Assembly: GCA_025361065.1 (NCBI GenBank) | Contig: JANYAY010000143.1 | Coordinates: 5,972 to 69,971 of the forward strand | Length of the DNA stretch: 64,000 bases | Source: Deltaproteobacteria bacterium | GTDB lineage: Bacteria > Desulfobacterota > Syntrophia > Syntrophales > Smithellaceae | Direction of reading: 5' to 3' | In this document: one piece after another, positions 14,013-40,642 of the stretch | How positions within the stretch are numbered: the first letter of the stretch is position 1 | Layout: the number at the start of each line of letters is the position of its first letter | The notes under the pieces: generated by a model | What the model was told of the DNA's origin: nothing | What the model saw: only the letters and a program-made list of their open reading frames with translations | The model's database searches: none | Program-made: the position numbers and the translations under genes

Positions 14013-14015
14013 CGC

Positions 14016-16174: not shown

Positions 16175-16184
16175 ATCGCCAAAG

Positions 16185-16770: not shown

Positions 16771-17274
16771 TTAGAGCTGCTTCACAATGATGTCGGCTTC
16801 TTTGAGCATGTCCGCCGCCAATTTGTCGGAATACCCATCACGAATAACGATGCGGACGATTCCCGCATTGATAATCATTTTAGCACAAATAACGCAAGGA
16901 TGATTGGTGCAATACAGAGTAGAGCCTTTAGTGATAACGCCGTGCAATGCCGCCTGAATAATAACGTTTTGCTCCGCATGCAGGCCCCGGCACAATTCAT
17001 GGCGCTCGCCGGAAGGAACATTAAGCTGCTCACGCAGGCATCCGATGTCCAGGCAGTGAGCCAGGGTGGAGGGTGCGCCGTTATATCCTGTGGCAAGAAT
17101 ACGGCGGTCACGTACCAGACCAGCGCCCACAGCGCGCCTGCGGCAGGTGCTGCGCCGGGAAACCAGTTCGATTATATCCAGAAAATATGTATCCCAATCG
17201 GGACGATGGTTAACCATTTCCGGTACAGTTTTTACCGCTGCTTTTTCCCCCGCCATATTTCCCCGCATTGCCAA
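16771..17274 (-). CDS. deoxycytidylate (dCMP) deaminase, ComEB type
   Basis: Contains the WDTYFLDI...RSTC block, the HAEQN zinc motif and PCVICAKMI. Confidence 0.85.
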
Positions 17275-17301
17275 TTCCGGGCTTTTCAGCCCAATGCTGC
17301 T

Positions 17302-18555
17302 CTACACTTTTTTTATTCTCTGTTGGTACAGGGGATACTGGTCGCAAAGTGTTTTCACTTTTGCCGCCACTTCCCGGATTCTCTTTTCATCGTTTATATT
17401 GGAAATAACATCGGCAATATAAGAAGCGATCAGTCGCATTTCGTTTTCCTTCATGCCGCGCGTCGTCACAGCGGGCGTGCCAATTCGAATCCCGCTGGTA
17501 ATCTGCGGCCCCTGCGTATCAAAGGGGATACCGTTTTTGTTTACTGTAATGGCGGCACGATCGAGTGCTTCCTGCGCTTCCTTGCCGTTTACCCCTTTGG
17601 CGGTCAAATCAACCAGCATCAGATGATTGTCCGTTCCCCCCGAAACAAGGCGGAAGCCCTGGTTTTTCAGTTCATCGGCCAGTGCCTGGGCATTTTTCAG
17701 AATTTGTTGCTGATACTGCTTAAATTCCGGTAACAGAGCTTCTTTAAAAGCGACGGCCTTAGCCGCGATAATGTGCATTAGCGGCCCGCCCTGCATGCCG
17801 GGAAAAACACGGCTGTTCAGAGTCTTGGCGAAAGCTTCTTTACACATAATCAATCCGCCCCGCGGGCCGCGTAAAGTCTTATGTGTTGTGGAAGTGACAT
17901 ATTCGCAAACCGGCACGGGAGTCGGATGAAGTCCCACGGCTACGAGTCCGGCGACATGGGCAATATCAGCCATGATGACGGCGCCAACTTCGTCGGCTAT
18001 CTTCCGGAAGCGCGTAAAATCGAGAGTCCGGGGATAGGCACTGGCTCCGACAATAATCATTTTCGGTTTATGCTCTTTGGCTAATTTTTCCATTTCAACA
18101 AAATCAATTGTTTCCGTATCTTTGTCTACACCGTATGGAATAATCTTATAATATTTGCCGGAAAAGTTGGCCGGGCTGCCGTGTGATAAATGGCCGCCAT
18201 GCGATAAATTCATGCCCAGAACAGTATCACCCGGCTGGAGTGCTGCAAAATAAACAGCCATATTCGCCTGAGATCCGGAGTGCGGCTGGACATTAACATT
18301 ATCGGCGCCGAAAAGCTGTTTACAGCGGTCGATGGCCAGATTCTCCACGATATCAACAAATTCACAACCGCCGTAATAGCGTTTTCCCGGATAACCTTCG
18401 GCATATTTATTGGTCATGATGCTGCCCTGGGCTTCCAGTACAGCTTCGCTGACAAAATTCTCGGATGCAATAAGCTCCAGTTTGCCTGCCTGTCTTTGCG
18501 TCTCCAGGTCTATGGCATGTTGCACTTCCGGATCAACTTTTTCTAAAAAAGACAT
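17302..18555 (-). CDS. glyA: serine hydroxymethyltransferase
   Basis: Highly conserved SHMT sequence ([21 protein letters not shown]). The start was moved to [11 protein letters not shown] (18555), which matches the usual N-terminus and has AGGAGG upstream. Confidence 0.95.
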
Positions 18556-18580
18556 GAGACCAAATTCCTCCTGCATTTCA

Positions 18581-18643
18581 TTAATCCCGCTCACGCGGGA
18601 CGAGCGTTAATTCTCGGCAGCCTGCTGCGAGGTGGGTGATTCG
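18581..18643. repeat. short structured repeat, copy A (pairs with 60136-60240)
   Basis: A 36-nt core, TTAATCCCGCTCACGCGGGACGAGCGTTAATTCTCG, is 34/36 identical to 60136-60171. A second 27-nt block is 23/27 identical to 60214-60240. Alignment done by eye. Confidence 0.6.
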
Positions 18644-19878
18644 TTAAATTTTTTAAATAGTAAAACCGCATTGACACCGCCGAAACCAAAAGTGCAGGAC
18701 ATGGCCGTGCGAATTTCTTTTTTGCGCGCATTATTGGCAACGTAGTCAAGATCGCATTCGGGATCGGGATGATCCAGATTGATCGTGGGTGGAATAATGC
18801 CTTCGGTCAATGCGAGAACCGAGAAGATGGCTTCCACACCGCCGGTTGCGCCCAGCATATGGCCGGTCATGGACTTGGTGGAGCTGATCATCAACTCCTG
18901 AGCATGCCCGCCAAAAACTGTTTTTACAGCCTGTGTTTCATACAGGTCATTGAGCGGTGTTGATGTTCCATGAGCGTTGATATAATCGATATCAGCCACA
19001 TTTAAACCTGCGTCTTTCACGGCAACGAGCATACCACGGGCGGCGCCTTCATGTCCGGGCGGGGGCGCCGCCATGTGAAATGCATCGGATGTGCAACCGT
19101 AACCGGCAAGTTCAGCATAAATACGCGCTCCTCTGTTGCGGGCAATAGATAGTTCTTCCAGAATAATAATGCCGCAGCCTTCGCCGATGACAAAACCGTC
19201 ACGTTCTTTATCAAAAGGCCTGCTGGCTTTTTGCGGTTCCGAGTTTTGTACCGATAACGCCCGCATCGAATTGAATCCGGCAACGGCAAGCGGTGTTATT
19301 GCCGCATCCGTCCCACCGGCGATCATGATATCGGCATCGCCATAGGCAATAGTTTTATAGGCATCGCCGATAGCCGATGTGCCGGCAGCACAAGCGGTAA
19401 CGGCGCAGTCGATCGGGCCCTTGGCGCCAAAGCGGATGGACACATGACCCGACGCCAAATTAGCCAGAATGCCCGGAACGGCGAAGGGAGAAATCTTCCT
19501 TGGTCCGGAAATCCGGAGAACTTCTTTTTCCCGTTCCATTGACGCTAATCCGCCAATGGCCGAGCCGATGATGACTCCGGCACGCGTTGCCACCCCCGGG
19601 GTGATAGTCAGGCCGGCGTCAACCATGGCCATTTCAGCCGCAGCCAAGGCATAAAGAATAAAGTCATCGTAGCGGCGGACTTCTTTTTTATCCACAAATT
19701 GCAGCGGATCAAAATTTTTCAATTCGGCGGCAATCTTGGTATTAAAGGAGGTGCTGTCGAATTTTGTAATTACACCTGCTCCGGATTTGCCCGCAATTGC
19801 ACCTTCCCAGGATTCCTGAGCGGAATTACCCAAGGGGGTTAATGCACCGAGACCCGTTACTACGACACGCCTTTTCAT
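18607..19878 (-). CDS. fabF: beta-ketoacyl-ACP synthase II
   Basis: MKRRVVVTGLG start. The active-site region around the Cys (AVTACAAG), the two His regions and the GFGGVN end are present. The roughly 12-aa tail ESPTSQQAAEN is encoded by the repeat. Confidence 0.95.
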   Translation of the reverse strand: MKRRVVVTGLGALTPLGNSAQESWEGAIAGKSGAGVITKFDSTSFNTKIAAELKNFDPLQFVDKKEVRRYDDFILYALAAAEMAMVDAGLTITPGVATRAGVIIGSAIGGLASMEREKEVLRISGPRKISPFAVPGILANLASGHVSIRFGAKGPIDCAVTACAAGTSAIGDAYKTIAYGDADIMIAGGTDAAITPLAVAGFNSMRALSVQNSEPQKASRPFDKERDGFVIGEGCGIIILEELSIARNRGARIYAELAGYGCTSDAFHMAAPPPGHEGAARGMLVAVKDAGLNVADIDYINAHGTSTPLNDLYETQAVKTVFGGHAQELMISSTKSMTGHMLGATGGVEAIFSVLALTEGIIPPTINLDHPDPECDLDYVANNARKKEIRTAMSCTFGFGGVNAVLLFKKFNESPTSQQAAEN

Positions 19879-19929
19879 TGGCTTAAACCCTGCTGACTTC
19901 ATAAAGAACTGAAAATATTGCCTGACAAA

Positions 19930-20166
19930 CTAATTAATGCCCTTGCCTTTGAGAAAATCAACAACGTCTTTAATAGTTCGAATCTTTTCGAGTTCCTCGT
20001 CGGCTATTTCCAGACCGAACACTTCTTCCATCTCCATGATCAGTTCAACCAGATCCAGCGAATCTGCTCCCAAATCATCAATAAAAGAAGCTTCCAGAAC
20101 ACATTCTTCACGGGTTACATCCAGTTGCTCCATAACAAGCTTAATGACTTTTTCTTCTAATGTCAT
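19930..20166 (-). CDS. acpP: acyl carrier protein
   Basis: 78 aa with the phosphopantetheine site [12 protein letters not shown]. Confidence 0.95.
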
Positions 20167-20257
20167 GTCCTATCCTCCTCAATTCGATTATTGCCTTGAA
20201 AATTGAATTATACGCTGCTCTTTTACCTTTTTTTAAAAAATAATTCCTTAGTTTTTT

Positions 20258-21199
20258 CTATGAAGCTAAAAATTCCAAAGTTCTATGCAGGGAAGCAGCA
20301 TCTTCAATACTGTATAGTTTGATATTTCTATTTATCCTTTTAATCAAACCGCAAAGTGTCCTTTTGGGTCCGATTTCAATAATTGTATCCACACCCAGCG
20401 CCGCCATTTTTTCCACTGACTGCCGCCATTTGACGGGAGAAACAATTTGGCTTAGCAAAAGCTCGCGGGCATTATCCTGAGTGTAAAAAATATCGGGATC
20501 ACAGTTCGGGATCACCGGAATACCAAAAGCCTGAAATTCGATATTATTGAGATTTTCGGCAAATTGACTTGCGGCGCCCTGCAATAAACTGCAATGGCAG
20601 GGAGCGCTAATCGGCAAAAGAACCGTTTTCATGGCGCCTTTTAGCTTTGCCTGAAGCATCACTTTTTCCACAGCGGTGGCGTGACCGGAGACGACAACCT
20701 GTTGCGGCGCATTGTAAATAACCACAGCAACCTGTTCTTGGTCATTGTCGAATTCTGCACATATTTTTTCCACGGCATCATCATCCATACCGAGAATTGC
20801 GCCCATCGCACCCATACCCGGCGGCAGAGCCTCCTGATGATAACGGGCGCGAGCCTGCACCAGAGGAAAAATATCGGCAAACTTGATGGCGCCGGCAGCG
20901 TAAAGAGCGCAATACTCACCAAGGCTGTGTCCGGCCAGAACTATCGGTGATAAAGAAGTTTTTTCTTTAAAAACACTATAAATTGCAATATTTAATGTTA
21001 AAACAGCAATTTGCGTGTTGACAGTTAAATTGAGGTCTTCCTGCGGCCCTTCCAAGCAGAGGCGGCGCATATCTACCTTAAGCAAAGAACTGGCACGATG
21101 AAAAACTTCCTGAACGCTAGCAAATTCGGCAAATAAAGAGCTTCCCATCCCCGTATGCTGTGTTCCCTGACCGGGAAATACTAGTGCTATTTTAGCCAT
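20258..21199 (-). CDS. fabD: malonyl-CoA:ACP transacylase
   Basis: Contains FPGQGTQ and the GHSLGEY nucleophile elbow. The start was moved to MAKIALVFPGQG. Confidence 0.95.
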   Translation of the reverse strand: MAKIALVFPGQGTQHTGMGSSLFAEFASVQEVFHRASSLLKVDMRRLCLEGPQEDLNLTVNTQIAVLTLNIAIYSVFKEKTSLSPIVLAGHSLGEYCALYAAGAIKFADIFPLVQARARYHQEALPPGMGAMGAILGMDDDAVEKICAEFDNDQEQVAVVIYNAPQQVVVSGHATAVEKVMLQAKLKGAMKTVLLPISAPCHCSLLQGAASQFAENLNNIEFQAFGIPVIPNCDPDIFYTQDNARELLLSQIVSPVKWRQSVEKMAALGVDTIIEIGPKRTLCGLIKRINRNIKLYSIEDAASLHRTLEFLAS

Positions 21200-24460: not shown

Positions 24461-24534
24461 TGGGGGATCGTCTAGCGGTAGGACTCAGGGCTCTGAACTC
24501 TGCTACCTAGGTTCGAATCCTGGTCCCCCAGCCA
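24461..24534 (+). tRNA. tRNA-Gln (anticodon CUG), CCA encoded
   Basis: Cloverleaf folded by hand. Acceptor TGGGGGA/TCCCCCA, D stem GTCT/GGAC, anticodon stem CAGGG/CTCTG with loop CTCTGAA, T arm CTAGG-TTCGAAT-CCTGG, discriminator G, then CCA. Confidence 0.9.
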
Positions 24535-24540
24535 TTGCAT

Positions 24541-24615
24541 GGTCCCATCGTCTAGTGGTTAGGACGCTGGCCTCTCACGCCGGAAACCGGGGTTCAACTC
24601 CCCGTGGGACTACCA
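24541..24615 (+). tRNA. tRNA-Glu (anticodon CUC), CCA encoded
   Basis: Cloverleaf folded by hand. Acceptor GGTCCCA/TGGGACT (G1-U72 wobble), D arm GTCT-AGTGGTTA-GGAC, anticodon stem CTGGC/GCCGG with loop CTCTCAC, T arm CGGGG-TTCAACT-CCCCG, discriminator A, then CCA. Confidence 0.9.
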
Positions 24616-29295: not shown

Positions 29296-30645
29296 ATGCA
29301 GGTCAACGGCCTACGTGTGAGAGCATTAAAAGACGTTGAGACAAAGAAGGGTCCCGTGGTGTACTGGATGAGCCGGGAGCAGCGCCTAAAGGACAACTGG
29401 GCTTTATTGCATGCTCAGGGGCTGGCCATGGAAAGAAAAGTTCCGCTTCTGGTCGTATTTTCCCTGGTTCCTCAATTTCTCGGTGCAGCGATGCGGCAGT
29501 ATGATTTCATGCTTAAGGGTCTTGCCGATGTTGAAGATGATTTAGCGAAATTGTCAATTCCATTTTATTTATTGGAGGGTCTGCCGGAAAAAACCATAGC
29601 AGATTTCTCATCAGTGGTGCATGCCTCTGCGCTGGTCAGTGATTTTGACCCTTTGCGAATGAAAAGGGAATGGAAAGAGAAGTTGACCTCGCAGGTACAT
29701 ATACCGTTTTATGAAGTGGATGCGCACAATATCGTGCCCTGCTGGATTGCATCTTCCAAACAGGAATACGGCGCGTATACACTGCGGCCCAAACTAAAGA
29801 GATTGCTCCCGCAATTCTTGACGGAGTATCCGAAGCTGGAACGGCATCCTTACAAAATCAAGAGGATTGATGAGCGAATCGATTGGCAGAAAGTCCGTAC
29901 CCGCTTGAAAATTGATCATTCAGTAGGTATCGATGATTCGCTGGACTCAGGAGAGGCTGCAGCAGCCAATATTTTAGGTCACTTCATAGCCAACAAGCTT
30001 AACGACTATAACCTGAAGCGCAATGATCCCTGCCTGGACGGCCAATCAAATCTATCCCCCTATTTGCATTTTGGTCAACTTGCGGCCCAAAGAGTGGCTT
30101 TGGAAGTGACAGGAGCCAAGGTCGATTGGCAATCGAAAGATGCCTTTCTGGAAGAACTCATTGTACGGCGCGAGCTCTCCGATAATTTTTGTTTTTACAA
30201 TGAGACATATGACCGCTTTGAGGGATTTCCGCACTGGGCTCAGGAGTCACTCAACGAGCACCGCAGCGATAAACGGGAATATACCTATACCGTTTCACAG
30301 TTTGAAGAGGCTAACACTCACGATCCTCTCTGGAATGCGGCACAAAGGGAAATGGTCTGTAAAGGCAAAATGCACGGATATATGAGAATGTATTGGTGCA
30401 AGAAAATACTGGAATGGACGGAATCTCCTGAAGAGGCACTTGAATCAGCAATTTACCTCAATGATAAATATGAATTGGATGGCAGGGATCCGAATGGATA
30501 TGCAGGGATGGCCTGGTCAATCGGCGGGGTGCATGACCGGGCCTGGTTTGATCGCAAGGTATTCGGAAAGGTTCGTTATATGAGTTACGGCGGGTGTCAG
30601 TCGAAGTTCGATGTCGATGAATACATCAAACAAAACAAAGTATAA
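29296..30645 (+). CDS. phr: class II CPD deoxyribodipyrimidine photolyase
   Basis: 449 aa. N-terminal VVYWMSREQRLKDNWALLHAQ and C-terminal FAD-binding region (YMRMYWCKKILEW, GGVHDRAW) are typical of class II enzymes. Confidence 0.9.
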   Translation: MQVNGLRVRALKDVETKKGPVVYWMSREQRLKDNWALLHAQGLAMERKVPLLVVFSLVPQFLGAAMRQYDFMLKGLADVEDDLAKLSIPFYLLEGLPEKTIADFSSVVHASALVSDFDPLRMKREWKEKLTSQVHIPFYEVDAHNIVPCWIASSKQEYGAYTLRPKLKRLLPQFLTEYPKLERHPYKIKRIDERIDWQKVRTRLKIDHSVGIDDSLDSGEAAAANILGHFIANKLNDYNLKRNDPCLDGQSNLSPYLHFGQLAAQRVALEVTGAKVDWQSKDAFLEELIVRRELSDNFCFYNETYDRFEGFPHWAQESLNEHRSDKREYTYTVSQFEEANTHDPLWNAAQREMVCKGKMHGYMRMYWCKKILEWTESPEEALESAIYLNDKYELDGRDPNGYAGMAWSIGGVHDRAWFDRKVFGKVRYMSYGGCQSKFDVDEYIKQNKV

Positions 30646-30665
30646 AAGTAAATGGGGGTGTAGGT

Positions 30666-31268
30666 ATGAGTAAAAAAGACAAGAAGATCATTCTAATAGC
30701 GCAGTGTCTGATCAATCCTTATTGTCGCGTACACATATTGGGGCAGAACTTCCCCTTAACCATTGAAGTAACAAACTACCTCCTGAGAAAGAACGTTGGC
30801 ATCATCCAGTATCCCTGTCCCGAGACGACTGCCATGGGCCTGATGCGCAATCCCCAGGGCCGCCAGCAATACGACAACATCTTCTTTCGCAACCACTGCA
30901 AGGAGTTGCTTCAGGTGCCCATGCTCATGGTCCGGGAATTCCTCCAGAACCGCTACCGCCTGTGCTGCTTCATCGGCCTGGAAAACAGCCCCACCTGCGG
31001 TATCCACTGGGGGCGACACAAGGTGAATCGATATGGCACAGAGTCGCCCAACCAGGATGAAGGATCTGAGAAAAACCCGAAAGACCCGGTTCTCCGGGGG
31101 ATCATGGCTGAGATCCTGGAGGAGGAATTGGCTAAAGAAGGAATCAAAACCCCATTTCTGGAACTGCCCGCCCTTTCTCCTGCCGACTCGGACAAGCGAC
31201 AACATTTCTGGAAGGATCTTGAGGATGCTCTTTATTTAAATCCCGAAGAAGAGCGGGTCGTTTCTTGA
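30666..31268 (+). CDS. DUF523/TudS-related protein (putative Fe-S desulfidase-like)
   Basis: 200 aa with three spaced Cys contexts, IAQCLINPYCRV, YPCPETTAMG and NSPTCGI, as in DUF523 proteins. This is the second DUF523 paralog in the window. Confidence 0.55.
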   Translation: MSKKDKKIILIAQCLINPYCRVHILGQNFPLTIEVTNYLLRKNVGIIQYPCPETTAMGLMRNPQGRQQYDNIFFRNHCKELLQVPMLMVREFLQNRYRLCCFIGLENSPTCGIHWGRHKVNRYGTESPNQDEGSEKNPKDPVLRGIMAEILEEELAKEGIKTPFLELPALSPADSDKRQHFWKDLEDALYLNPEEERVVS

Positions 31269-31320
31269 GATCCCTCTTCATGCTTTGACTTCGTAACGCG
31301 AGTAATCACACTTCCGGCAA

Positions 31321-31368
31321 ATCTCCTGAATGAGCACCTTTGCCGGGAACCTTTTTCCTTTGATCCCC
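31321..31368. terminator. bidirectional terminator candidate between convergent genes
   Basis: CCGGCAAA (31323-31330) pairs with TTTGCCGG (31348-31355), followed by the T-rich CCTTTTTCCTTT. Confidence 0.45.
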
Positions 31369-31384
31369 AGGGAAGACAGTATGT

Positions 31385-31639
31385 CTATTTCTTCTTCTTT
31401 GCCGGCGGCATAATCACCGCGTCGATGACATCAATGACGCCGCTGGAGGCCATGAAGGCGGTCTTGACGACAGTCGCCTTACCCACCATCACCTTTTCCT
31501 CTTTGACGATAATTTTTATGGATGCCCCCTGCATCGAAGCATAACGCATCGAAAAAAAGGCGTGCTGCATAGGCCTGCAGGAAAAGTGCCTCAAAATGCT
31601 TTCCTGACGGGCATGTCGTCCAGGAAGAGAGTTGATTGC
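31385..31639 (-). pseudogene. truncated fasciclin (FAS1) domain remnant
   Basis: The C-terminus KVMVGKATVVKTAFMASSGVIDVIDAVIMPP matches the FAS1 end motif (NGVIHVID-x-VL-x-P). The open frame is only about 84 codons, bounded upstream by TAA at 31640-31642. It has no signal peptide or N-terminal FAS1 half. Confidence 0.5.
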
Positions 31640-31731
31640 TTAAAAAAGGACTGCCGCCAAAAAAACCTACATATCATGCTTAACCCCTTCGTCGCCTCTG
31701 CTTTTCGATGAAAAACGATGAAAAATACACC

Positions 31732-31760
31732 TTGACACGAGAAAACACTACTTCTATACT
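31732..31760 (+). promoter_or_regulatory. sigma-70-type promoter candidate P1 upstream of the five-gene operon
   Basis: TTGACA (31732-31737), a 17-nt spacer, then TATACT (31755-31760). Confidence 0.35.
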
Positions 31761-31827
31761 CAGAACCGTCAGAAGCAATGTTTTATCAAATACCGTTCGG
31801 GATTGATGTCTTTTGATCAATCGGTTA

Positions 31828-31856
31828 TTGACACCTACAGAGTATGACACTATATC
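31828..31856 (+). promoter_or_regulatory. sigma-70-type promoter candidate P2 upstream of the five-gene operon
   Basis: TTGACA (31828-31833), a 17-nt spacer, then TATATC (31851-31856), about 60 nt before the ATG at 31916. Confidence 0.35.
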
Positions 31857-31915
31857 AAATACTATTGTTACGGATTATTAACTGGTAATATAACCATCAG
31901 GTTCCCAATTATCCA

Positions 31916-32644
31916 ATGAAATCCGAACACAGCCTATTCAGCCAGATAAGGTCATCTTTTGAAAAAACGCCTGAACGGTCAAACGGGGGCCGCCCTTTCG
32001 TCACGCTGAGTTATGCCCAGAGCATTGACGGGTCCATCGCATATCGACCGGGCAGGCCGCTGGCCTTGAGCGGCAGAGATTCCCTTCTTTTAACACATCA
32101 TTTGCGATCTATCCACGAAAGTATTCTCGTCGGTATAGGCACTATTCTGGCCGATGATCCCTACCTGACAGTCCGGCACATCAATGCAAAGAGCCCTCAA
32201 CCCGTCATCGTGGATGGGCGGCTCCGCTTCCCCCTCAATGCCCGCGCCCTGAAGCATAACCATCAAGCGCCATGGATTGCCACAAGCGAGAAGTCAGATG
32301 TGGAACGTGAGCAGACGTTAATTAATTCCGGTGCCAAGGTAATGCGGATTCCGTCCACGCCGGACGGGCTGATTGATTTAACCGTTCTGCTGAAACGGCT
32401 GCTGGAGATGAATATTACGAGCCTTATGGTAGAGGGGGGCGCTGAAATCATAACCAGTTTCCTCAAACTCCGCCTGGTTGATCAACTGGTTCTGACCATC
32501 AGCCCCGTTTACATCGGCGGCATGCATGCCATATGGCCCCTGCAGCTTGACCTCGCCAATCCGCCCGTTCTTGAAAACATATCATGGAAGACGTACGGAT
32601 CAGACCTTGTCCTCCGGGCCGACTTGGCCTGGAAAAATTCATGA
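31916..32644 (+). CDS. RibD C-terminal-domain (DHFR-fold) reductase, stand-alone
   Basis: RPFVTLSYAQSIDGSIA, ILVGIGTILADDPYLTVR and LMVEGGAEI are typical RibD_C blocks. There is no deaminase domain. Confidence 0.85.
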   Translation: MKSEHSLFSQIRSSFEKTPERSNGGRPFVTLSYAQSIDGSIAYRPGRPLALSGRDSLLLTHHLRSIHESILVGIGTILADDPYLTVRHINAKSPQPVIVDGRLRFPLNARALKHNHQAPWIATSEKSDVEREQTLINSGAKVMRIPSTPDGLIDLTVLLKRLLEMNITSLMVEGGAEIITSFLKLRLVDQLVLTISPVYIGGMHAIWPLQLDLANPPVLENISWKTYGSDLVLRADLAWKNS

Positions 32645-33675
32645 AACGGACCGCTTTATATTTTACGGGTCCCGGCCGCGTGGAAATCCGGGAGGAAACG
32701 CTGCCTGACCTGCCGTCCGGCAAGGTCCTGGTTGAGACGAGGCACTCGGCTATCAGCACCGGCACCGAGCTTCTTATATACCGCGGCCTGTGCCCTCCGG
32801 ATTTACCCGTTGATGCAACAATTCCCGGCCTCCAGGGATCATTTGCCTATCCCGTGAAATACGGGTATGCGACCGTAGGGCAAGTCATTGCTGCGGGAAA
32901 GGCTGCGACCGGCGGATGGGAAGGCAGGATGGTCTTTTCATATCATCCTCATGAAAGCCATTTTATTGCCGACCCCGCTGAACTGATTCCTCTTCCTGCG
33001 GAAATGGCCCTCGAAGAGGCCCTGTTTCTCCCCAATCAGGAAACGGCAATTAATTTCGTGATGGACGGCCGACCCCTGATCGGCGAACAGGTTGTCGTTT
33101 TTGGCCAGGGGATTGTCGGCTTGCTGACGACTTCCCTCCTCTCTCTTTATCCTCTGAAGCAATTATTGACCGTCGACAAGTATCCCCTGCGCCGGAAATT
33201 ATCCATAATGGCCGGAGCGCATGAAGCTTTCGATCCCTCGGGAGAGGACTTTCCCGTCAGCATCATGAAACGGCTTGAATCGCCGGGAGTTCATGCGGGA
33301 GCGGATCTGGCCTTCGAGGTATCGGGCTCCCCCGATGCACTCCAGCAGGCCATCGCTGTCACGGGCTTCAGCGGCAGGATCGTCATCGGATCCTGGTATG
33401 GCCTGAAGGATGTTCATCTCAACCTAGGGGGATCGTTCCACCGCAGCCGCATTCGGCTGATCAGCAGTCAGGTCAGCAGTATCGACCAGGAATTCCTCGG
33501 CCGGTGGACAAAATCCAGACGCCTGGCGTTTGCCGCGGTGCTTCTCGAAAAGGTGAAGCCTCTGCGCTTCGTGACCCACCGTTTCCCTTTCCACTCGGCG
33601 GCAGATGCCTATGCCTGCCTGGACAAAAACCCGGATGAATGCGTTCAGGCATTGCTCAACTACGGCGGACCTTAA
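32641..33675 (+). CDS. medium-chain (zinc-type) dehydrogenase/reductase family protein, BchC-like subgroup
   Basis: The start at 32641 overlaps the upstream stop (ATGA). Motifs HSAISTGTE, Rossmann VVVFGQGIVGLL and GSWYG...LGGSFHRSRIRLISSQV are present. Confidence 0.8.
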   Translation: MKRTALYFTGPGRVEIREETLPDLPSGKVLVETRHSAISTGTELLIYRGLCPPDLPVDATIPGLQGSFAYPVKYGYATVGQVIAAGKAATGGWEGRMVFSYHPHESHFIADPAELIPLPAEMALEEALFLPNQETAINFVMDGRPLIGEQVVVFGQGIVGLLTTSLLSLYPLKQLLTVDKYPLRRKLSIMAGAHEAFDPSGEDFPVSIMKRLESPGVHAGADLAFEVSGSPDALQQAIAVTGFSGRIVIGSWYGLKDVHLNLGGSFHRSRIRLISSQVSSIDQEFLGRWTKSRRLAFAAVLLEKVKPLRFVTHRFPFHSAADAYACLDKNPDECVQALLNYGGP

Positions 33676-33737
33676 AGGCCGGCGCACACGAACACCCGCC
33701 TATGTCGCGGGCCAGCGAAAATGAAAGGACGAACAAG

Positions 33738-34118
33738 ATGTACACAGTGGCAGTGAAGCGGCAATTTATTGCAAGGCACTATCTGATCGGCGGTAACTGG
33801 GGGAGCGAAAATCAGGAGCATTCTCATTTTTACCGCCTGGAAGTCAGTCTGGAAGGGCCTCAGCTGGATGAGCACGGCTATCTGATTGACATCACCGCGA
33901 TCAATGGTCTTCTGGATGGTATCGTGATTCGTCTCCACGACCGCGTTCTCAATGATATCCAGGAACTTGCCGGCTTGAATCCCAGCATCGAGCATCTGGC
34001 CGGATTATGCTGCCAATGGGTGCATGATGGCCTGCCTAATCCGCCGATAGACGCGATCTGCGTCAAGATCTTCGAAAATGAAGATGCCTGGGCATCCGTT
34101 CGTCGCCTGATCAAATGA
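33738..34118 (+). CDS. 6-pyruvoyl-tetrahydropterin synthase/QueD (COG0720) family protein lacking the catalytic Cys
   Basis: 126 aa from ATG 33738. The Zn-ligand histidines are present (ARH..., EHSH). A hand alignment to the QueD motif CxxxHGH places Glu where the Cys is expected. An LND block (RVLNDI) is present. Confidence 0.75.
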   Translation: MYTVAVKRQFIARHYLIGGNWGSENQEHSHFYRLEVSLEGPQLDEHGYLIDITAINGLLDGIVIRLHDRVLNDIQELAGLNPSIEHLAGLCCQWVHDGLPNPPIDAICVKIFENEDAWASVRRLIK

Positions 34119-35224
34119 AGATTGCTTTGATGATTTATGGGGCTCTCGACCGGGTGTCGGGAGGCTATCTCTACGACCGCATGATGGTGGAACATCTGGA
34201 GCGTATGGGTCATCAGGTGGAAATCGTCACCTTGCCTGGAAAGCCTTATGCGCTCAACTTCACAGACAATTTCTCCAGCAGTGCATTGCGGACCCTGCAG
34301 GAAAGCCGGCCCGATATTCTGCTGCAGGACGAGCTGTGTCATCCCTCTCTTTTCCTTTTAAACGGAAAACTTAAAAAAATCCTGAGATGCCCCATCATCT
34401 CAATCGTGCATCATCTGAGAAGTTCAGAGGCACGTCCGGCCTGGCAGAATGTCTTTTATCAGAGGGTGGAAAAGAAGTATCTCCGTGCCCTGGATGGCTG
34501 CATTTTCAACAGCGAAACAACCCGCGCCGTCATTCTTCATCTTCTCGGCGAAGAACGCCCTTGCGTTGTGGCTTATCCAGGAGGAGACCATATCGCCTCC
34601 GACATTTCCAACGGCAGGATCCTGGAGCGCAGCCTTAAACCGGGACCCCTGAAGCTCCTTTTCATCGGGAACGTCATCGCGCGCAAGGGTCTCCATATCT
34701 TGATCAGCGCTCTGGGCAGCCTCATGGACCAGCATTGGCAGCTGACTGTTGCGGGTAGTCTTTCTGCTGACAGCCGCTATGCCGCGAGTGTTAAACGCCT
34801 GATTGAGGGCACAGGCCTTCAGGAGCGGGTGGTGTTTAAGGGAACGGTCGATCACGAAACCTTGACGGGACTGCTGGAAAATCATCACTGCCTGGCCGTT
34901 CCGTCCTTTTATGAGGGATTTGGCATCGTCTATCTTGAAGCCATGGCCTTTGGACTGCCGGTCATCGCCTCGACAGCGGGAGCCGTTCCCGAGGTCGTGG
35001 CGGACGGCCATGAAGGGTTTCTTGTCCCTCCCGGAGAGGTGGCGGCGCTGGCCAACCGCATCAGCATACTTGCCGGTGATCGCGATCGTCTCGCCGCAAT
35101 GGGACTGGCGGCACGAAATCGTTACGTGAAGCATCCTTCCTGGGCGGATGGCGCGGTGAGTATCCATAACTTTTTTCACAGGATCGGCGGCACGGCTATG
35201 TCGTCAGAGTTCCGAAAAGGATAG
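34115..35224 (+). CDS. GT4-family (Glycos_transf_1) glycosyltransferase
   Basis: The start overlaps the upstream stop (ATGA). C-terminal EGFGIVYLEAMAFGLPVIAS and EGFLVPPG (E-X7-E type) motifs are present. Confidence 0.9.
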   Translation: MKIALMIYGALDRVSGGYLYDRMMVEHLERMGHQVEIVTLPGKPYALNFTDNFSSSALRTLQESRPDILLQDELCHPSLFLLNGKLKKILRCPIISIVHHLRSSEARPAWQNVFYQRVEKKYLRALDGCIFNSETTRAVILHLLGEERPCVVAYPGGDHIASDISNGRILERSLKPGPLKLLFIGNVIARKGLHILISALGSLMDQHWQLTVAGSLSADSRYAASVKRLIEGTGLQERVVFKGTVDHETLTGLLENHHCLAVPSFYEGFGIVYLEAMAFGLPVIASTAGAVPEVVADGHEGFLVPPGEVAALANRISILAGDRDRLAAMGLAARNRYVKHPSWADGAVSIHNFFHRIGGTAMSSEFRKG

Positions 35225-35231
35225 ATCATCC

Positions 35232-36164
35232 ATGCCTCCATCCAACTATATAAATTTTCAACGCTTTTTGGCAGCCAAAAAAAGTGTGGATGATAGTTCT
35301 ATCAACCGGCATGTGCTGCACCACCTGGCGAAAGAGCTTGCGAATCGTTCATATCCGGGGCAACTGCAGGTCGTGGAGGTCGGCGCCGGCATCGGCACCA
35401 TGCTGGAGCGATTGACGGGCTGGCAGATTCTGCCGGATGTCTGTTATCAAGCCATTGACCTGGACCCCGCCAACATAAAAGAGGCCAGACGCCTTCTCCC
35501 CGTCTGGAGCAGCGCAATGGGCCTCGAAATGACCGAAACGCCGGACGGCGGCGAATTGTTCGCGAAAGACGGCTCACGTCATATTGCGGTTAGTTTCGCC
35601 GCCATGGACATTTATGACTGGATAGCCGGGCAAGGAGAAAATAAAACATTCGATCTTCTGATCGCCCATGCCTTCATGGATCTGGTGGATGCCTCCCGCG
35701 CTCTCACGGCAATGCGGTCCGTGGTGAAAAAGGACGGCCTTCTTTATCTGACGGCCAATTTTGACGGGATCACCATTCTTGAGCCGCCCCTCGATCCCGC
35801 ACTGGACCGGCATATCCTGTCCCTTTATCATGACAGCATGGATAAGCGTCTGGTCAACGGCCGGCTTTCGGGCGACAGCAAAACCGGCCGCCATCTTTTT
35901 TCCCGCTTGTCTGAACAGGGCATCGGGCTGCTCGCGGCCGGCAGTTCCGACTGGGTCGTTTTTCCCGCAGCAGGTCGGTATCCAGGCGATGAGGCTTATT
36001 TCCTCCAGTATATCATCAGCCTGATCGAAACCACCCTGAAGGGCCATGCGTCCCTGGAAGCTGGATCGTTTCGGCGATGGATTTCCGAACGTCGCTCCCA
36101 GATTGAACAGGGTAAAGTTGTCCTGATCGTCCATCAGTTGGATTTCCTCGGTTTCGTTTCTTAG
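35232..36164 (+). CDS. class I SAM-dependent methyltransferase
   Basis: Motif I VVEVGAGIGTMLERL. It starts 8 nt after the glycosyltransferase stop. Confidence 0.75.
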   Translation: MPPSNYINFQRFLAAKKSVDDSSINRHVLHHLAKELANRSYPGQLQVVEVGAGIGTMLERLTGWQILPDVCYQAIDLDPANIKEARRLLPVWSSAMGLEMTETPDGGELFAKDGSRHIAVSFAAMDIYDWIAGQGENKTFDLLIAHAFMDLVDASRALTAMRSVVKKDGLLYLTANFDGITILEPPLDPALDRHILSLYHDSMDKRLVNGRLSGDSKTGRHLFSRLSEQGIGLLAAGSSDWVVFPAAGRYPGDEAYFLQYIISLIETTLKGHASLEAGSFRRWISERRSQIEQGKVVLIVHQLDFLGFVS

Positions 36165-36866
36165 AGATAGGTAGATTCCTGGTGAAAAAGCCGGAGAGGG
36201 TGTGCGCGCAAATGCCCTGCCCGTAAAAAAGACTGCGGGTTGAAAATCCGCGATTAGCAGGACATAGGCTGATCAGCATGTCAGCTCATCCTCTCCTGGG
36301 TTAGGCCTACCAATAAACGTCCATTTAATTTCGTTCAAAAAGATATTTTTATCGGGTCAGCCAAGTCTGGAAATCATCATTATAACAATTAAATCAATAA
36401 GCTCTGATCATTAAAAAATATCTTAAAAAAGATTGACACTGAATCCAAATAGGTTACATTGGAAACAAATGCTCAAGCAGCTATTGCCATGACAATGGGA
36501 TGTCAATCATTAAATATCCCATTATTCCACAATTAGATTATTTTTTGCCGCAGCAATTTATATGATGGGAAGATTTATTGAGGCATTATCTCCAGCAGTC
36601 ACTGAATGCAGGGGAAGATCATCTAAAGCCGGAGCAGTACTTTATTGTCCAGCGCTTATATTTCCAGGATGCACAGACTTAAAAAAGAGTTGGCCGACAA
36701 AATACTGCAGGATCATCCCAATATTACACATTTGCCGGATAAGCTGGGAAAAACGGCTTAGTGCAGAGAGCAGATAACGCGAATGACCGGAGGAATTTTA
36801 TCATTGAGTTCTCCGCAAAGGGCCGGGCTATTCCTTTATAACGAAAATTAGATTCGGGCTGGTCGG

Positions 36867-38612
36867 ATGGCTAAAAAAACTACATATGCGGCACTGGAAG
36901 AGAGAGTCCGGATCCTGGCAGACGAAAACAGGGCTCTTGTGTCAGCGGGTGAACATCAGCGAAAACAACTGGAGGAGTGTATAAGATTCGAAAAGGACCT
37001 CCGGGAGAAAATCTGGAAGGAACTGGAACAGGTTCTGGAATTTGAGAAACTTCTCTCCGAGATTTCCGCAACCTTCACGAATATCCCTGCCAAGGAGGTG
37101 GATCGGGAAATCAAGGACATACTCCGGCGTGTTGCAGGCATGTTTGGACTCGAACGTGGTTCCGTCATGCAATATTCTAATGATCTCGGACAGATTTGTG
37201 CGACACACTCGTGGGCGAGAGAGGGGCTTCCGGAGTTTTTTGACCTCTCTGAAGACGGCACTTTTATTACGAATCAACATTTTCCCTGGGTTACTAAAAG
37301 GATGTCCCATCAGGAAATCGTGTTTTTTTCGGACGTTGCTGAATTGCCCAGGGAGGCCAAAAAAGACAAACAGACGTTTCAAAAGTTGGGGGTGAAATCC
37401 GGAATATCCATACCCTACTTTGTTGAAGGTTCCTTCTTGTTTACCGTCACATTCGGATCTACCCGCTCAGGAAGCTCCTGGCCGGAGGACTTGATTCATC
37501 GGCTTAGACGCCTCGGAGAGATCCTGTTGAATGCCCTTCTGCGGAAGAATGCAGACGAGGAAATCCAGAAGGCCTTTTCCGAGATCCGGGAGTTGAAGGA
37601 TCGCCTGCAGGAGGAGAACATCCTTCTCCTGAAAGAGATCAAGACCATCAGGAAGCATCCTGAAATCATCGGAGAGAGCGATGCGATGAAAAAGGTCCTC
37701 GCCAGAGCAGAGCAGGTGGCGAAAGCCCAGACGACCGTGCTCATCCTGGGTGAGACCGGCACGGGTAAGGAACTGGTCGCGCGGGCCATTCATGGTTTCA
37801 GTGCACGGAAGAACCGTCCTATGGTTACTGTAAACTGCGCCGCTCTGCCTGCTACCCTGGTGGAGGCCGAGTTGTTCGGTCGGGAAAAGGGGGCCTACAC
37901 TGGTGCCCTTTCCAAGCAGGTCGGGCGCTTTGAAATCGCCGATGGGTCAACCATTTTTCTCGACGAAATCGGCGAATTGCCCATGGAGATCCAGGTCAAA
38001 CTGCTTCGTGTCCTGGAGAGAGGGGAGTTCGAGAGGTTGGGAAGTTCGAAGACTTTGAGAGTTAATGTGCGGGTGATCACTGCGACCAATCGAGACCTGC
38101 AAAAGGCGATTGAGGAAGGCAGATTCAGGGAAGACCTCTATTATCGTTTGAATGTCTTTCCCATCCAGATACCTCCTTTGAGAGAACATACGAACGACAT
38201 CCTTCCTCTCACATGGTCCTTTATCAAGGAGTTCAGCCATGCCATGGGCAAACCGATAGACTCGATACCGAAGGGCGGTCTCGACGCAATGCTTTGCTAC
38301 CCCTGGCCCGGCAATATCAGGGAACTTCGGAATCTTATAGAGCGGGCGATGATCGAGAGCAGGGGCAAAACCCTTATTGTGAAATTGCCGGCGCGTCACA
38401 GTACCAGGATATCTCACGCCCTAACCATGGAAGAATTAGAATGCGAACATATCAAAGACATATTGAAGAAAACCAATTGGCGAATCAGGGGCGCAAACGG
38501 CGCGGCGGAGATCCTGGGGCTCAACCCCAGCACCCTGTATGCCCGAATGAAGAAGCTTGGTGTCGAACGCCCCCGGGCACATCCATATCCTGACGAACCA
38601 TCCAAATATTGA
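36867..38612 (+). CDS. sigma-54-dependent transcriptional activator (coiled-coil + GAF sensor, AAA+ domain, Fis-type HTH)
   Basis: Walker A GETGTGKE, the GAFTGA variant GAYTGA, an ESELFGHE-like region and the C-terminal HTH AAEILGLNPSTLYARMKKLG. There is no receiver domain. Confidence 0.9.
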   Translation: MAKKTTYAALEERVRILADENRALVSAGEHQRKQLEECIRFEKDLREKIWKELEQVLEFEKLLSEISATFTNIPAKEVDREIKDILRRVAGMFGLERGSVMQYSNDLGQICATHSWAREGLPEFFDLSEDGTFITNQHFPWVTKRMSHQEIVFFSDVAELPREAKKDKQTFQKLGVKSGISIPYFVEGSFLFTVTFGSTRSGSSWPEDLIHRLRRLGEILLNALLRKNADEEIQKAFSEIRELKDRLQEENILLLKEIKTIRKHPEIIGESDAMKKVLARAEQVAKAQTTVLILGETGTGKELVARAIHGFSARKNRPMVTVNCAALPATLVEAELFGREKGAYTGALSKQVGRFEIADGSTIFLDEIGELPMEIQVKLLRVLERGEFERLGSSKTLRVNVRVITATNRDLQKAIEEGRFREDLYYRLNVFPIQIPPLREHTNDILPLTWSFIKEFSHAMGKPIDSIPKGGLDAMLCYPWPGNIRELRNLIERAMIESRGKTLIVKLPARHSTRISHALTMEELECEHIKDILKKTNWRIRGANGAAEILGLNPSTLYARMKKLGVERPRAHPYPDEPSKY

Positions 38613-39196: not shown

Positions 39197-40642
39197 ATGA
39201 CATATCCTAGCGTTTACCCCACGGGGGCGACCATCTACAATCCTGACAAGTGTTGGAATGGCTATACTATCTATCAGGCAAGGGAACTGGGGGCTCTGCT
39301 TATCGACATGAACGGAAGCGAGGTGAAGTTGTGGAAGGGACTTCATGGTTTTCCCAACCAGATCCTGCCGGGCGGCTACGTTATGGGTCACACGGGGCTC
39401 AGGCCCACTGCCTTTTCTTCGCAGGACCAGACCGACCTCGTGCAGGTGGATTTCGATGGAAAGATTGTGTGGAAGTTCGACAGATGGGAATTCATTGAGG
39501 ACCCGGGCGAGGAGCCCCAATGGATGGCCCGTCAACACCACGATTTCCAACGCCAGGGAAACCCGGTCGGTTATTACGTGCCGGGCATGGACCCCTGTGT
39601 AGATCACGGCAATACCTGGATTCTCTCTCACAAGAACGTCATCAAAAAGGAGATTTCCGAAAAGCCGCTTCTCGACGATGTCTTCCTGGAGGTGAACTGG
39701 GAGGGCGATGTGGTCTGGGAGTGGTCGTGCAGCGATCATTTCGAGGAGCTGGATTTCAGCGAGGAGGCCAGAAACATCCTGGCCCGCAACCCCAACATAG
39801 TGTCCTCCGGCGGTGGTGTGGGGGACTGGATGCACATCAACTGCATGTCACTGCTGGGGCCGAACCGGTGGTACGACGGAGGGGATCAGCGCTTCCACCC
39901 CGACAACATCATCTGGGACGCCCGCGAGAGCAACATCCTGGCTATTACCAGCAAGAAGACCGGCAAGATCGTCTGGAAGGTTGGTCCGGACTATAATGCC
40001 AGCAAGGCCCTGAAGAAGCTCGGCTGGATCATCGGACAGCATCACACCCACATGATCCCCAGGGGACTCCCGGGGGAGGGGAACATCCTGGTTTACGACA
40101 ACGGCGGATGGGCGGGTTACGGCGCGCCCAACCCCGGTGCCCCCATGGGCATCAAGAACGCGCTGAGGGACTATTCGCGGGTGCTGGAATTCGATCCGGT
40201 CACGCTGGAGATTGTCTGGCAACATACGCCCAAGGAGGCAGGGCTGCTCCACCCCACGGACAGCAACCGCTATTACAGTCCTTTCATCAGCTCCGCCCAG
40301 CGGCTGCCGAACGGCAACACCCTGATCACGGAAGGCTCCGGCGGCCGGATCATCGAAGTTACGCCCGAACACGAGCTGGTTTGGGAATACATCACTCCCT
40401 ATTGGGGCTCCATGCTGCACATGAATATGATTTATCGGGCCTACCGTGTGCCTTATGAGTGGGTGCCCCAGTTGGAGCGGCCCGAACAAACCCCCATCCG
40501 GCCGATCGATGTGACCACCTTCCGCGTGCCCGGCGCTGCGGCGCCCGGTCACAGGCAGGTCACCGAAGTTGAAGGGGTTCGGCCGTACCAGGGCGATGCG
40601 GCCTTGTGCGTCCAAGTCGATGTGGAAACCGAAAGAAAGTAA
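39197..40642 (+). CDS. aryl-sulfate sulfotransferase (ASST) family beta-propeller protein, no signal peptide
   Basis: 481 aa with a strong RBS (AAGGAGGA). The N-terminus TGATIYNPDKCWNGYTIYQ...LIDMNGSEVKLW and later blocks (HHDFQRQGNP, LPNGNTLITEGSGGRIIEV) match my recollection of the ASST/Arylsulfotran_2 family. Confidence 0.55.
   Translation: MTYPSVYPTGATIYNPDKCWNGYTIYQARELGALLIDMNGSEVKLWKGLHGFPNQILPGGYVMGHTGLRPTAFSSQDQTDLVQVDFDGKIVWKFDRWEFIEDPGEEPQWMARQHHDFQRQGNPVGYYVPGMDPCVDHGNTWILSHKNVIKKEISEKPLLDDVFLEVNWEGDVVWEWSCSDHFEELDFSEEARNILARNPNIVSSGGGVGDWMHINCMSLLGPNRWYDGGDQRFHPDNIIWDARESNILAITSKKTGKIVWKVGPDYNASKALKKLGWIIGQHHTHMIPRGLPGEGNILVYDNGGWAGYGAPNPGAPMGIKNALRDYSRVLEFDPVTLEIVWQHTPKEAGLLHPTDSNRYYSPFISSAQRLPNGNTLITEGSGGRIIEVTPEHELVWEYITPYWGSMLHMNMIYRAYRVPYEWVPQLERPEQTPIRPIDVTTFRVPGAAAPGHRQVTEVEGVRPYQGDAALCVQVDVETERK

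Follow-up and report, generated by a model that had tools for sequence, protein, structure and literature searches.

A conserved five-gene cassette from a Smithellaceae bacterium that likely starts from the GTP cyclohydrolase II product and may yield a glycosylated, methylated pterin

The stretch of DNA analyzed here, 64,000 nucleotides (nt) of contig JANYAY010000143.1 from a bacterium of the Smithellaceae (hereafter, the window), contains five co-directional open reading frames (ORFs) on the + strand, within positions 31916-36164, that encode a RibD_C reductase, a medium-chain dehydrogenase/reductase (MDR), a protein of the 6-pyruvoyltetrahydropterin synthase (PTPS) type, a glycosyltransferase of family 4 (GT4) and a methyltransferase. 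These five genes are the core of a widespread cassette, probably the soluble part of an uncharacterized pathway. The genes and the associated features are as follows.

31916-32644, + strand: RibD_C-type pyrimidine (ribosylamino to ribitylamino) reductase, 242 amino acids (aa), without a deaminase domain (Pfam and NCBIfam)
32641-33675, + strand: MDR-superfamily dehydrogenase, 344 aa, polyol-dehydrogenase branch (Pfam and PDB profile)
33738-34118, + strand: PTPS-like T-fold protein of 126 aa from a separate subfamily of COG0720 (PF01242)
34115-35224, + strand: GT4 glycosyltransferase (GT-B fold), 369 aa (Pfam)
35232-36164, + strand: class I S-adenosylmethionine (SAM)-dependent methyltransferase, 310 aa, a cassette-specific family (Pfam and AlphaFold model)
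31732-31760, + strand: candidate sigma-70-like promoter (TTGACA-17-TATACT), located about 155 nt ahead of the RibD_C gene; an 11/12 consensus match, and a consensus match only
14016-15260, - strand: ribBA, 3,4-dihydroxy-2-butanone 4-phosphate synthase and GTP (guanosine triphosphate) cyclohydrolase II (GCH II), with a TTG start and the GCH II domain at 14028-14603 (tblastn)

The five genes are tightly packed, with spacings of -4, 62, -4 and 7 nt between successive genes. The ATGA stop/start overlaps join the RibD_C gene to the MDR gene (32641-32644) and the PTPS-like gene to the GT4 gene (34115-34118), the spacer ATCATCC (35225-35231) separates the GT4 and methyltransferase genes, and the 62-nt gap in front of the PTPS-like gene (33676-33737) contains a Shine-Dalgarno-like site, AAAGGA. 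An initial annotation of the window had described these genes, with the same overlaps, spacer and gap, as one operon-like unit, and both this description and its domain calls for the five proteins are upheld by ORF analysis and by Pfam and NCBIfam assignment, respectively. Longer alternative ORFs exist for MDR (from 32584) and for the PTPS-like protein (from 33639), but the shorter starts are preferred because the orthologs begin there (MYTVAV...). The candidate promoter is the best sigma-70-like site within 31000-37000; a search for a sigma-54 (-24/-12) promoter upstream of the operon found none, and an Rfam scan of the whole window, in which only two tRNAs were found, detected no riboswitch ahead of the operon. 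The G+C content is 55% in the operon versus 50% in the window. Each of the five proteins retains all the residues that are invariant in its family and, therefore, the operon looks functional.

The conservation of the cassette was surveyed in one genome per species, with the PTPS-like protein alone as the seed, and the best 80 loci plus 8 others were compared; the ORF calls in these loci are crude. Partners were counted by tblastn with the window proteins, at up to 6 kb from the PTPS-like gene, in assessable loci of other species only (82 loci). At least 591 species genomes, including a few archaeal ones assembled from metagenomes, hold a relative of the PTPS-like protein. The best 80 loci come mostly from Chloroflexota (Anaerolineae, Caldilineae and Dehalococcoidia) and Thermodesulfobacteriota (Syntrophaceae, Desulfomonile and Desulfobaccales), and also include Methylobacter, one member of the Phycisphaeraceae and one archaeal metagenome-assembled genome (MAG). 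The partner most tightly linked to the PTPS-like gene is GT4 (67 of 72 assessable loci); MDR is found nearby in 64 of 75 loci, RibD_C in 60 of 73, GCH II, which leads the cassette, in 47 of 71, and the methyltransferase, which comes after GT4, in 43 of 66. All four partners that are present in the window occur together in 35 of 61 assessable loci, and three of the four in 47 of 61. The strand and order of the partners relative to the PTPS-like gene are uniform across the loci, the exception being a single locus with an inverted methyltransferase gene. Such an arrangement is far beyond chance. The initial annotation had named co-occurrence in other genomes beforehand as a test of its proposal and had half-remembered similar neighborhoods in other phyla; the genes do co-occur, and the neighborhoods are real and numerous.

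The order GCH II, RibD_C, MDR, PTPS, GT4 is seen in the Methylobacter and Promineifilaceae bacterium loci. The closest relatives of the window locus, with 94% and 66% identity in the PTPS-like protein, have exactly the same five genes among unrelated flanks and, therefore, the unit is a cassette rather than a neighborhood. In the former relative (7358-8291 and 8656-9789 of that locus), the methyltransferase is called as two short ORFs and a DDE transposase comes after it, so that the gene may be disrupted. The cassette-borne GCH II is usually absent in loci of the Thermodesulfobacteriota type, the window included, and a very distant member of the family retains only MDR, PTPS and GT4, which make up the minimal core. 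Clustering of the flanking ORFs in the 82 loci yielded, as recurrent families, GT4, MDR, GCH II, RibD_C, the methyltransferase, a CDP (cytidine diphosphate)-alcohol transferase and a flippase-like protein; no conserved neighbor families beyond these were found in this clustering, in which no search was aimed at ToxC or ToxD. A chance neighborhood of housekeeping genes, namely, a riboflavin reductase, QueD, and an exopolysaccharide glycosyltransferase with its methyltransferase, could be imagined given that the riboflavin operon of the window lacks ribD and that the GT4 and methyltransferase families are generic. However, the two ATGA overlaps, the synteny that is kept across phyla while the flanks change, and the QueD score and motif of the PTPS-like protein (the former under the cutoff, the latter absent) make this explanation extremely improbable.

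The cassettes of other lineages indicate where the pathway begins. Given that GCH II heads the cassette and is often fused to RibD_C (in 24 of the 41 GCH II-containing ORFs of the cassettes), the pathway most likely starts from the GCH II product. Among these GCH II sequences, the HSEC and CDCG zinc motifs are found in all, and the Tyr of the (R/K)AY motif, which in RibA is required for deformylation, is kept in 39 of 41; therefore, the cassette GCH II should make 2,5-diamino-6-ribosylamino-4(3H)-pyrimidinone 5'-phosphate. In the locus from the archaeal MAG (L047, 6117-8075), GCH II is fused to MDR, with the methyltransferase, PTPS and GT4 genes around it and without RibD_C. The same archaeal contig bears a methanogen-type thymidylate synthase, and one homolog of the methyltransferase is labelled Methanothrix. 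In the window, the only GTP cyclohydrolase identified by tblastn is the RibA half of ribBA, 17 kb from the cassette, in agreement with the initial annotation, which placed this gene at 14016-15218, slightly short of the ORF found here; its GCH II is 52% identical to the cassette-encoded GCH II of other phyla. Judging from the architecture of the cassette elsewhere, ribBA is the probable in-trans supplier of the first intermediate.

The second gene product to act would be the RibD_C protein, which matches PF01872 (5.6e-41, 141 bits versus a cutoff of 24.1) and passes the domain-level model TIGR00227 (154.8 bits versus 150.15); no function-specific (equivalog) cutoff was reached by any of the five proteins. 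In the case of RibD_C, the equivalog model for the archaeal reductase, TIGR01508, gives 120.7 bits versus a cutoff of 186, and TIGR00326 is not reached either. Its relatives in the PDB are RibD/RibG and the archaeal and fungal 2,5-diamino-6-ribosylamino-pyrimidinone 5'-phosphate reductases, and a deaminase domain is absent from every cassette examined. The coupling to GCH II, the scores of RibD_C and the lack of a deaminase thus make the first two steps well supported, with RibD_C most likely acting on the GCH II product. The resulting intermediate keeps the 2-amino-4-oxo pyrimidine, the part that T-fold enzymes recognize. The riboflavin operon of the window, on the - strand within 12812-18594, consists of nusB (12812-13252), ribH (13364-13840), ribBA, ribE (15329-15976) and nrdR (16185-16646). 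There is no ribD in this operon, and the RibD_C gene of the cassette is the only one in the 64 kb; a deaminase-like gene at 16771-17274 was considered as a RibD deaminase and rejected, being ComEB/dCMP-deaminase-like.

The PTPS-like protein is a clear member of PF01242 (78.8 bits versus a cutoff of 22.4) with an intact predicted zinc site: the family has no exceptions at H14, H28 and H30, whose counterparts in PH0634 and in 2oba, a QueD-type structure from Pseudomonas, are zinc His residues. The position of the QueD cysteine is occupied by an invariant Glu24, and Glu113, which probably corresponds to the Glu of QueD that anchors the pterin or pyrimidine ring, is also invariant. The motif GG[DN]WGxENxxH[SA]H is found in 53 of 54 orthologs. 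These features set the protein apart from the described classes, for which the signature motifs are CxxxHGH (PTPS-I), CxxxxxHGH (PTPS-II) and ExxHGH (PTPS-III) (PMC5041015). In the window segment S-E-N-Q-E-H-S-H, the Cys and the Gly of the PTPS-I motif are replaced by Glu24 and Ser, respectively; the PTPS-II motif is excluded by the lack of a Cys upstream of the His pair, and the PTPS-III motif by Asn25 at position -3, Glu at -4 and Ser or Ala in place of Gly. The signature of PTPS-IV, FGPAQ (PMC5445326), aligns with WGSEN, even though the nearest solved protein is the PTPS-IV member SCO6650 (3d7j, 5e-15). The function of a further class, PTPS-V, has been called unclear in a review that also notes that some archaeal PTPS-III enzymes may take a monophosphate substrate (PMC5041015), and the family of the cassette may be PTPS-V. 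Nor is the protein an ordinary QueD, an outcome that the initial annotation had named as a refutation of its proposal: it scores 39.2 bits on TIGR03367 versus a cutoff of 89.25 and lacks CxxxHGH, and queuosine genes such as queC, queE and queF are found neither among the recurrent neighbor families of the 82 loci nor in the Pfam-annotated loci. The tandem and multi-domain relatives of the PTPS-like protein contain repeated PTPS domains only. Two or three tandem PTPS-like domains of the cassette subfamily are found in the haptophyte proteins P0366 and P0392 (Emiliania huxleyi and Gephyrocapsa oceanica, about 855 aa) and likewise in P0370, a 421-aa protein from a cluster that includes Trichormus azollae.

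In the scheme of the initial annotation, the PTPS-like protein has as its substrate dihydroneopterin triphosphate, the product of GTP cyclohydrolase I (GCH I), RibD_C and MDR reduce the ring and the side chain, and GT4 and the methyltransferase decorate a soluble pterin. The PTPS fold with its intact zinc site fits such a scheme, as does the fact that the tetrahydrobiopterin glucosyltransferase belongs to GT4, and pterin glycosides with methylated sugars exist. The cassettes, however, carry GCH II, often fused to RibD_C, and not GCH I; no FolE or FolE2 is found in the Pfam-annotated loci or upstream of split cassettes; the motifs of classes I to III, which use dihydroneopterin triphosphate, are absent; and the membrane machinery described below is left without an explanation. 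A dihydroneopterin-triphosphate-type entry substrate is, therefore, probably wrong, and the scheme as a whole is unlikely. By contrast, the observation that the gene set fails to match the canonical folate, queuosine and riboflavin pathways stands, and extends to tetrahydrobiopterin. Neither Pfam nor NCBIfam (June 2026) has a dedicated family for any one of the five proteins or of the membrane proteins linked to them.

The MDR protein (ADH_zinc_N, 34.3 bits) has as its best NCBIfam match TIGR01202, the model for the bacteriochlorophyllide dehydrogenase BchC, an identity that was rejected at 74 bits versus a cutoff of 291.25; the protein does have the BchC-like motif SAISTGTE. In profile searches, the solved proteins closest to it are RspB, butanediol dehydrogenase, an alcohol dehydrogenase, threonine dehydrogenase, ketose reductase, galactitol-1-P 5-dehydrogenase and sorbitol and xylitol dehydrogenases. 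The Rossmann motif GxGxxG, here GQGIVG, does not vary in the family, which also conserves H104 and E134.

The GT4 protein matches Glycos_transf_1 (124 bits versus a cutoff of 26.4) and Glyco_trans_1_4 (120 bits), and contains the EX7E motif in the form EGFGIVYLE; GT4 is a retaining family of glycosyltransferases. Against solved enzymes, its profile scores highest with the sucrose-phosphate synthase Tll1590 (128.6 bits), compared with 100 bits for MshA, 91 for PimB' and 86 for BshA, and also matches HepE, GlgM and PimA. By sequence comparison, GT4 is thus nearest to enzymes with phosphorylated small acceptors. A closer kinship with the pteridine glycosyltransferases (BGluT/PGT) does not hold: the tetrahydrobiopterin glucosyltransferase scores 70.5 bits. 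Five generic methyltransferase domains of Pfam match the methyltransferase weakly, and only Methyltransf_11 passes (22.7 bits, cutoff 21.2). Its homologs fill more than 6500 clusters. No invariant position of the family is changed in it, neither in the SAM motif EVGAGIG (E49-G51-A52-G53-G55) nor at D76 nor elsewhere. The AlphaFold model (pLDDT 90) has the class I fold, with a Foldseek probability of 1.0 to many methyltransferases in the PDB; these are a mixture of generic O-, N-, C- and S-methyltransferases of small molecules, so that the Foldseek comparison with the PDB favors no atom specificity.

The acceptor preferences of the GT4 relatives bring in an alternative in which the ring never closes. 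By analogy with inositol-1-phosphate in the synthesis of phosphatidylinositol (PI), phosphatidylinositol mannosides (PIM) and mycothiol, MDR and the PTPS-like protein would alter the ribityl-phosphate, for example by oxidation at C3' or C4' followed by elimination of phosphate or cleavage, and the pyrimidine-polyol, or its phosphate, would be the acceptor for GT4 and, in lineages that have it, for phosphatidyl transfer. Such a route would account for the retention of the reductase, and sucrose-phosphate synthase and MshA, the nearest relatives of GT4, are enzymes with phosphorylated acceptors, although the likeness lies mostly in the donor-binding half. CDP-alcohol transferases, in turn, commonly take polyol phosphates, and the one linked to the cassette (see below) has weak matches to PgsA, AIPS and PIPS; furthermore, a phosphatase follows the methyltransferase in two loci. 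Against this, zinc PTPS-type T-fold enzymes classically act on a pterin with an imine electron sink, and no natural product of this kind is known. We consider this alternative doubtful, albeit the strongest of those weighed here. The phosphatase, of the haloacid dehalogenase (HAD) family and encoded 3' of the methyltransferase gene in two Thermodesulfobacteriota loci (L065, 10153-10866, and L071), could be the phosphatase of the pathway.

Apart from the soluble enzymes, two further families recurrently flank the cassette in the 82 loci, namely, a CDP-alcohol phosphatidyltransferase of about 400 aa and a flippase-like LPG_synthase_TM protein of about 340 aa, often with a 110-aa membrane protein alongside. 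The transferase/flippase-like pair is located either directly upstream on the same strand or convergently downstream of the cassette; in one protein, the transferase and the flippase-like domain are fused. Outside the window, 20 or more loci spread over several phyla have the CDP-alcohol transferase (PF01066) with the cassette; members of its family lie near the cassette in Methylobacter, in a delta-proteobacterial MAG and in a distant locus (L090). Where the front half of the cassette is located elsewhere (L019 and L021), the membrane genes stay with PTPS, GT4 and the methyltransferase. Conversely, when the search was seeded from the transferase side, the full cassette adjoined in 4 of 4 long contigs, with the order ABC-2 transporter, transferase, flippase-like protein, small transmembrane protein, (UbiE-like methyltransferase), GCH II, RibD_C, MDR, (CMAS-like methyltransferase), PTPS, GT4, (FkbM methyltransferase), methyltransferase. 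The matches of the CDP-alcohol transferase to PgsA, AIPS and PIPS in NCBIfam are well under the cutoffs. In the Methylobacter locus (11537-20378), the transferase/flippase-like pair is separated from the cassette by sulfatase-superfamily and FGE-sulfatase genes, and a sulfatase-superfamily protein is encoded inside the distant cassette L090 (6520-8145).

The membrane genes that go with the cassette in Chloroflexota, Methylobacter and other lineages, namely, those for the dedicated transferase, the flippase-like protein, the ABC-2 exporter and the small membrane proteins, suggest that, rather than being a free cofactor, the end product is probably phospholipid-linked or exported to the envelope. 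A more specific and tentative proposal is that the cassette builds the polar head group of a new kind of phospholipid in the membrane, or of a conjugate in the envelope. This head group would be a pterin-polyol or a pyrimidine-polyol obtained from GTP by way of riboflavin-pathway intermediates; it would be glycosylated, methylated, joined to CDP-diacylglycerol and flipped or exported.

Two other readings of the same linkage have to be weighed. One is a soluble pyrimidine or azapteridine metabolite of the toxoflavin kind, a toxin or signal that would be exported by the ABC-2 transporter, with the phosphatidyltransferase and the flippase-like protein as mere neighbors. Extra methyltransferases and a DrrA/NodI-type ABC exporter indeed accompany the Chloroflexota cassette, and the toxoflavin route likewise begins with GCH II and a RibD homolog and ends with a class I methyltransferase. 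However, linkage of the transferase/flippase-like pair to the cassette recurs in several phyla and in different orientations, and holds for all four long contigs found from the transferase seed. Moreover, a typical toxin cluster would not be so widespread as the cassette, which is vertically common in Anaerolineae. These points render this reading quite unlikely. The other is an aminopentanetetrol (APT) head group: ribitylamine 5-phosphate would be freed from the reduced pyrimidine, joined to CDP-diacylglycerol and N-methylated. 1-Amino-1-deoxyribitol is an aminopentanetetrol, and the partners of the cassette include a CDP-alcohol transferase and as many as four methyltransferases. Both N-methylated and O-methylated forms of APT lipids have been described (PMC6423904, PMC11346949), and the papers examined on these lipids name no biosynthesis genes. 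The difficulty is that GTP would be a costly source of an aminopentitol, that PTPS and GT4, the best-conserved pair, and MDR would have no role, and that APT lipids are considered to be markers of Aquificae and Methanomicrobiales whereas the cassette is found mainly in Anaerolineae/Caldilineae and Thermodesulfobacteriota. Because of these idle genes and the mismatched taxonomic range, the APT idea was set aside as very improbable.

Combining these lines of evidence, we propose a route in which the GCH II product is diverted, by reduction and subsequent oxidation, to a dihydropterin that is then glycosylated and methylated, and assign to this composite scenario a probability of roughly 0.5. In the first step, GCH II, provided by the RibA part of ribBA in the window and by the cassette copy in most other lineages, would convert GTP to 2,5-diamino-6-ribosylamino-4(3H)-pyrimidinone 5'-phosphate, and in the second step, RibD_C would reduce the ribosyl to the ribityl group without prior deamination, in the archaeal/fungal order of steps. 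These two steps, like the architecture of the cassette, are supported by the evidence presented above; the following four, and the lipid link, we infer. In the third step, the polyol-type MDR would re-oxidize a secondary hydroxyl of the ribityl chain, so that an aldosylamine would be turned into an alditylamine and then into a ketone, by the logic of aldose reductase and sorbitol dehydrogenase in the polyol pathway. Should the 2' hydroxyl be the one oxidized, the product would be the same 1-amino-1-deoxy-ketose that GCH I makes by Amadori rearrangement, and its ketone would close on the 5-amino group to yield a pterin resembling 7,8-dihydroneopterin-3'-phosphate, which is the sort of compound on which a zinc PTPS-type enzyme would naturally act. 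In the fourth step, the polyol-phosphate side chain would be remodeled by the PTPS-like T-fold enzyme, which has a predicted zinc site and has Glu24 where a Cys is usual; in the fifth and sixth steps, GT4 would attach a sugar and the methyltransferase would methylate the product. In many lineages, phosphatidyl transfer, flipping and export would follow.

The ring closure is far less secure than the general architecture of this route, which consists of entry through GCH II, a non-canonical pathway and a product that is glycosylated and methylated. Several points weigh against the scenario. We know of no experiment on the cassette and no product of it, nor of any lipid with a GTP-derived head group. 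Reduction followed by re-oxidation is a roundabout route to a pterin, for which an Amadori isomerase would suffice, so that the ribityl form itself may be what is needed. MDR has no conserved Cys at the usual catalytic-zinc position, where SAISTGTE is found instead, and the hydroxyl that it attacks is not readable from its sequence. In the split cassettes, a GCH I that would substitute for the GCH II-RibD_C-MDR half, and would have favored a pterin, was not found, only unrelated housekeeping genes. The 64-kb window itself contains neither the CDP-alcohol transferase nor the flippase-like gene nor the other membrane genes, and GCH II only in the form of ribBA. Finally, the riboflavin operon lacks ribD, so that the RibD_C gene might also serve riboflavin synthesis. 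Even so, a decorated pterin, as originally suggested, is a plausible product. The operon unit and the non-canonical gene set of the initial interpretation stand, its entry substrate is probably wrong, and the membrane link was not foreseen in it.

The metabolism of GTP-derived pteridines and flavins is among the best mapped, yet the cassette marks a new branch point in it, immediately after GCH II, and is present in the genomes of at least 591 species as well as in thousands of metagenomic protein clusters. It gives a functional context to an unassigned subfamily of COG0720. It also suggests a nucleotide-derived lipid head group or envelope decoration for Chloroflexota, which are dominant in many anaerobic digesters and sediments. 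If the head-group proposal is true, a new head-group class would be abundant in Anaerolineae and Caldilineae and present also in syntrophic and sulfate-reducing Thermodesulfobacteriota and in Methylobacter. In the searchable literature, nothing relevant was found on the combination of genes, on PTPS-V, on SCO6650/6655 or on GCH II in association with a CDP-alcohol transferase, and a route from GCH II is not mentioned in a review of bacterial pterins from 2026.

As for the surroundings of the operon in the window, it is directly preceded by genes for a class II photolyase (TIGR00591, 641 bits) and a TudS-related desulfidase-like protein (29296-31268, + strand) and followed by one for a GAF-domain sigma-54 activator (36867-38612, + strand); none of these flanks is conserved in the closest relatives of the window locus. 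Sigma-54 activators also adjoin the PTPS-like gene at L069 (7647-9857) and L090 (13040-14491), which may be a coincidence in regulator-rich genomes. An arylsulfotransferase-like gene is located 3 kb downstream of the operon (39197-40642). The G+C content of the window climbs from about 0.43-0.44 at 20-26 kb, where the two tRNA genes are located (24461-24612), to 0.54-0.57 at 26-30 kb.

Several known systems share parts of the logic of the cassette. The pteridine glycoside pathways of cyanobacteria and Chlorobium likewise start from GTP and employ a PTPS-family enzyme and a GT-B glycosyltransferase that acts on a small molecule. Cyanopterin, one of the products, bears a methylated sugar. It has been named as a pterin glycoside (PMC13259868). 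These pathways, however, consist of GCH I, PTPS, sepiapterin reductase and BGluT/PGT, whereas the cassette has the GCH II and RibD_C entry; MDR stands in place of the short-chain sepiapterin reductase, the PTPS-II motif CxxxxxHGH and BGluT orthology are absent, and the cassette is linked to membrane machinery. The riboflavin pathway with the archaeal/fungal order of steps shares the use of GCH II followed directly by a stand-alone RibD_C reductase. Its deaminase, lumazine synthase and riboflavin synthase are missing from the cassette, a ribH-ribBA-ribE operon exists separately in the window, and the MDR, PTPS-like, GT4 and methyltransferase components are foreign to riboflavin synthesis.

SCO6650 of Streptomyces coelicolor resembles the PTPS-like protein of the cassette in lacking the catalytic Cys, but has FGPAQ and only one His of the HxH pair (segment LHGAT), in contrast to WGxEN and the three zinc His residues of the cassette family. 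The neighbor reported for PTPS-IV is FolE2 (PMC5445326), as opposed to GCH II and RibD_C for the cassette. With the synthesis of PI, PIM and mycothiol, the cassettes of other lineages share the logic of a soluble polyol-phosphate module with a CDP-alcohol transferase and a GT4 enzyme encoded together. The polyol in PI and PIM comes from glucose 6-phosphate, whereas that of the cassette would come from GTP, and the transferase linked to the cassette, unlike the PI-type enzymes, belongs to a separate family that is well under the PgsA, PIPS and AIPS cutoffs.

Finally, there are two precedents for GCH II feeding a pathway other than riboflavin synthesis. In toxoflavin synthesis, ToxB is a GCH II, ToxE is a RibD homolog and ToxA is a methyltransferase, so that this route, too, ends in methylation. 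In the folate bypass of Chlamydia, GCH II and TrpF lead to dihydroneopterin phosphate by way of an Amadori isomerase. Both these systems operate without MDR, PTPS-like and GT4 enzymes, and Chlamydia employs the Amadori isomerase at the point where the cassette has the proposed reductase/dehydrogenase pair.

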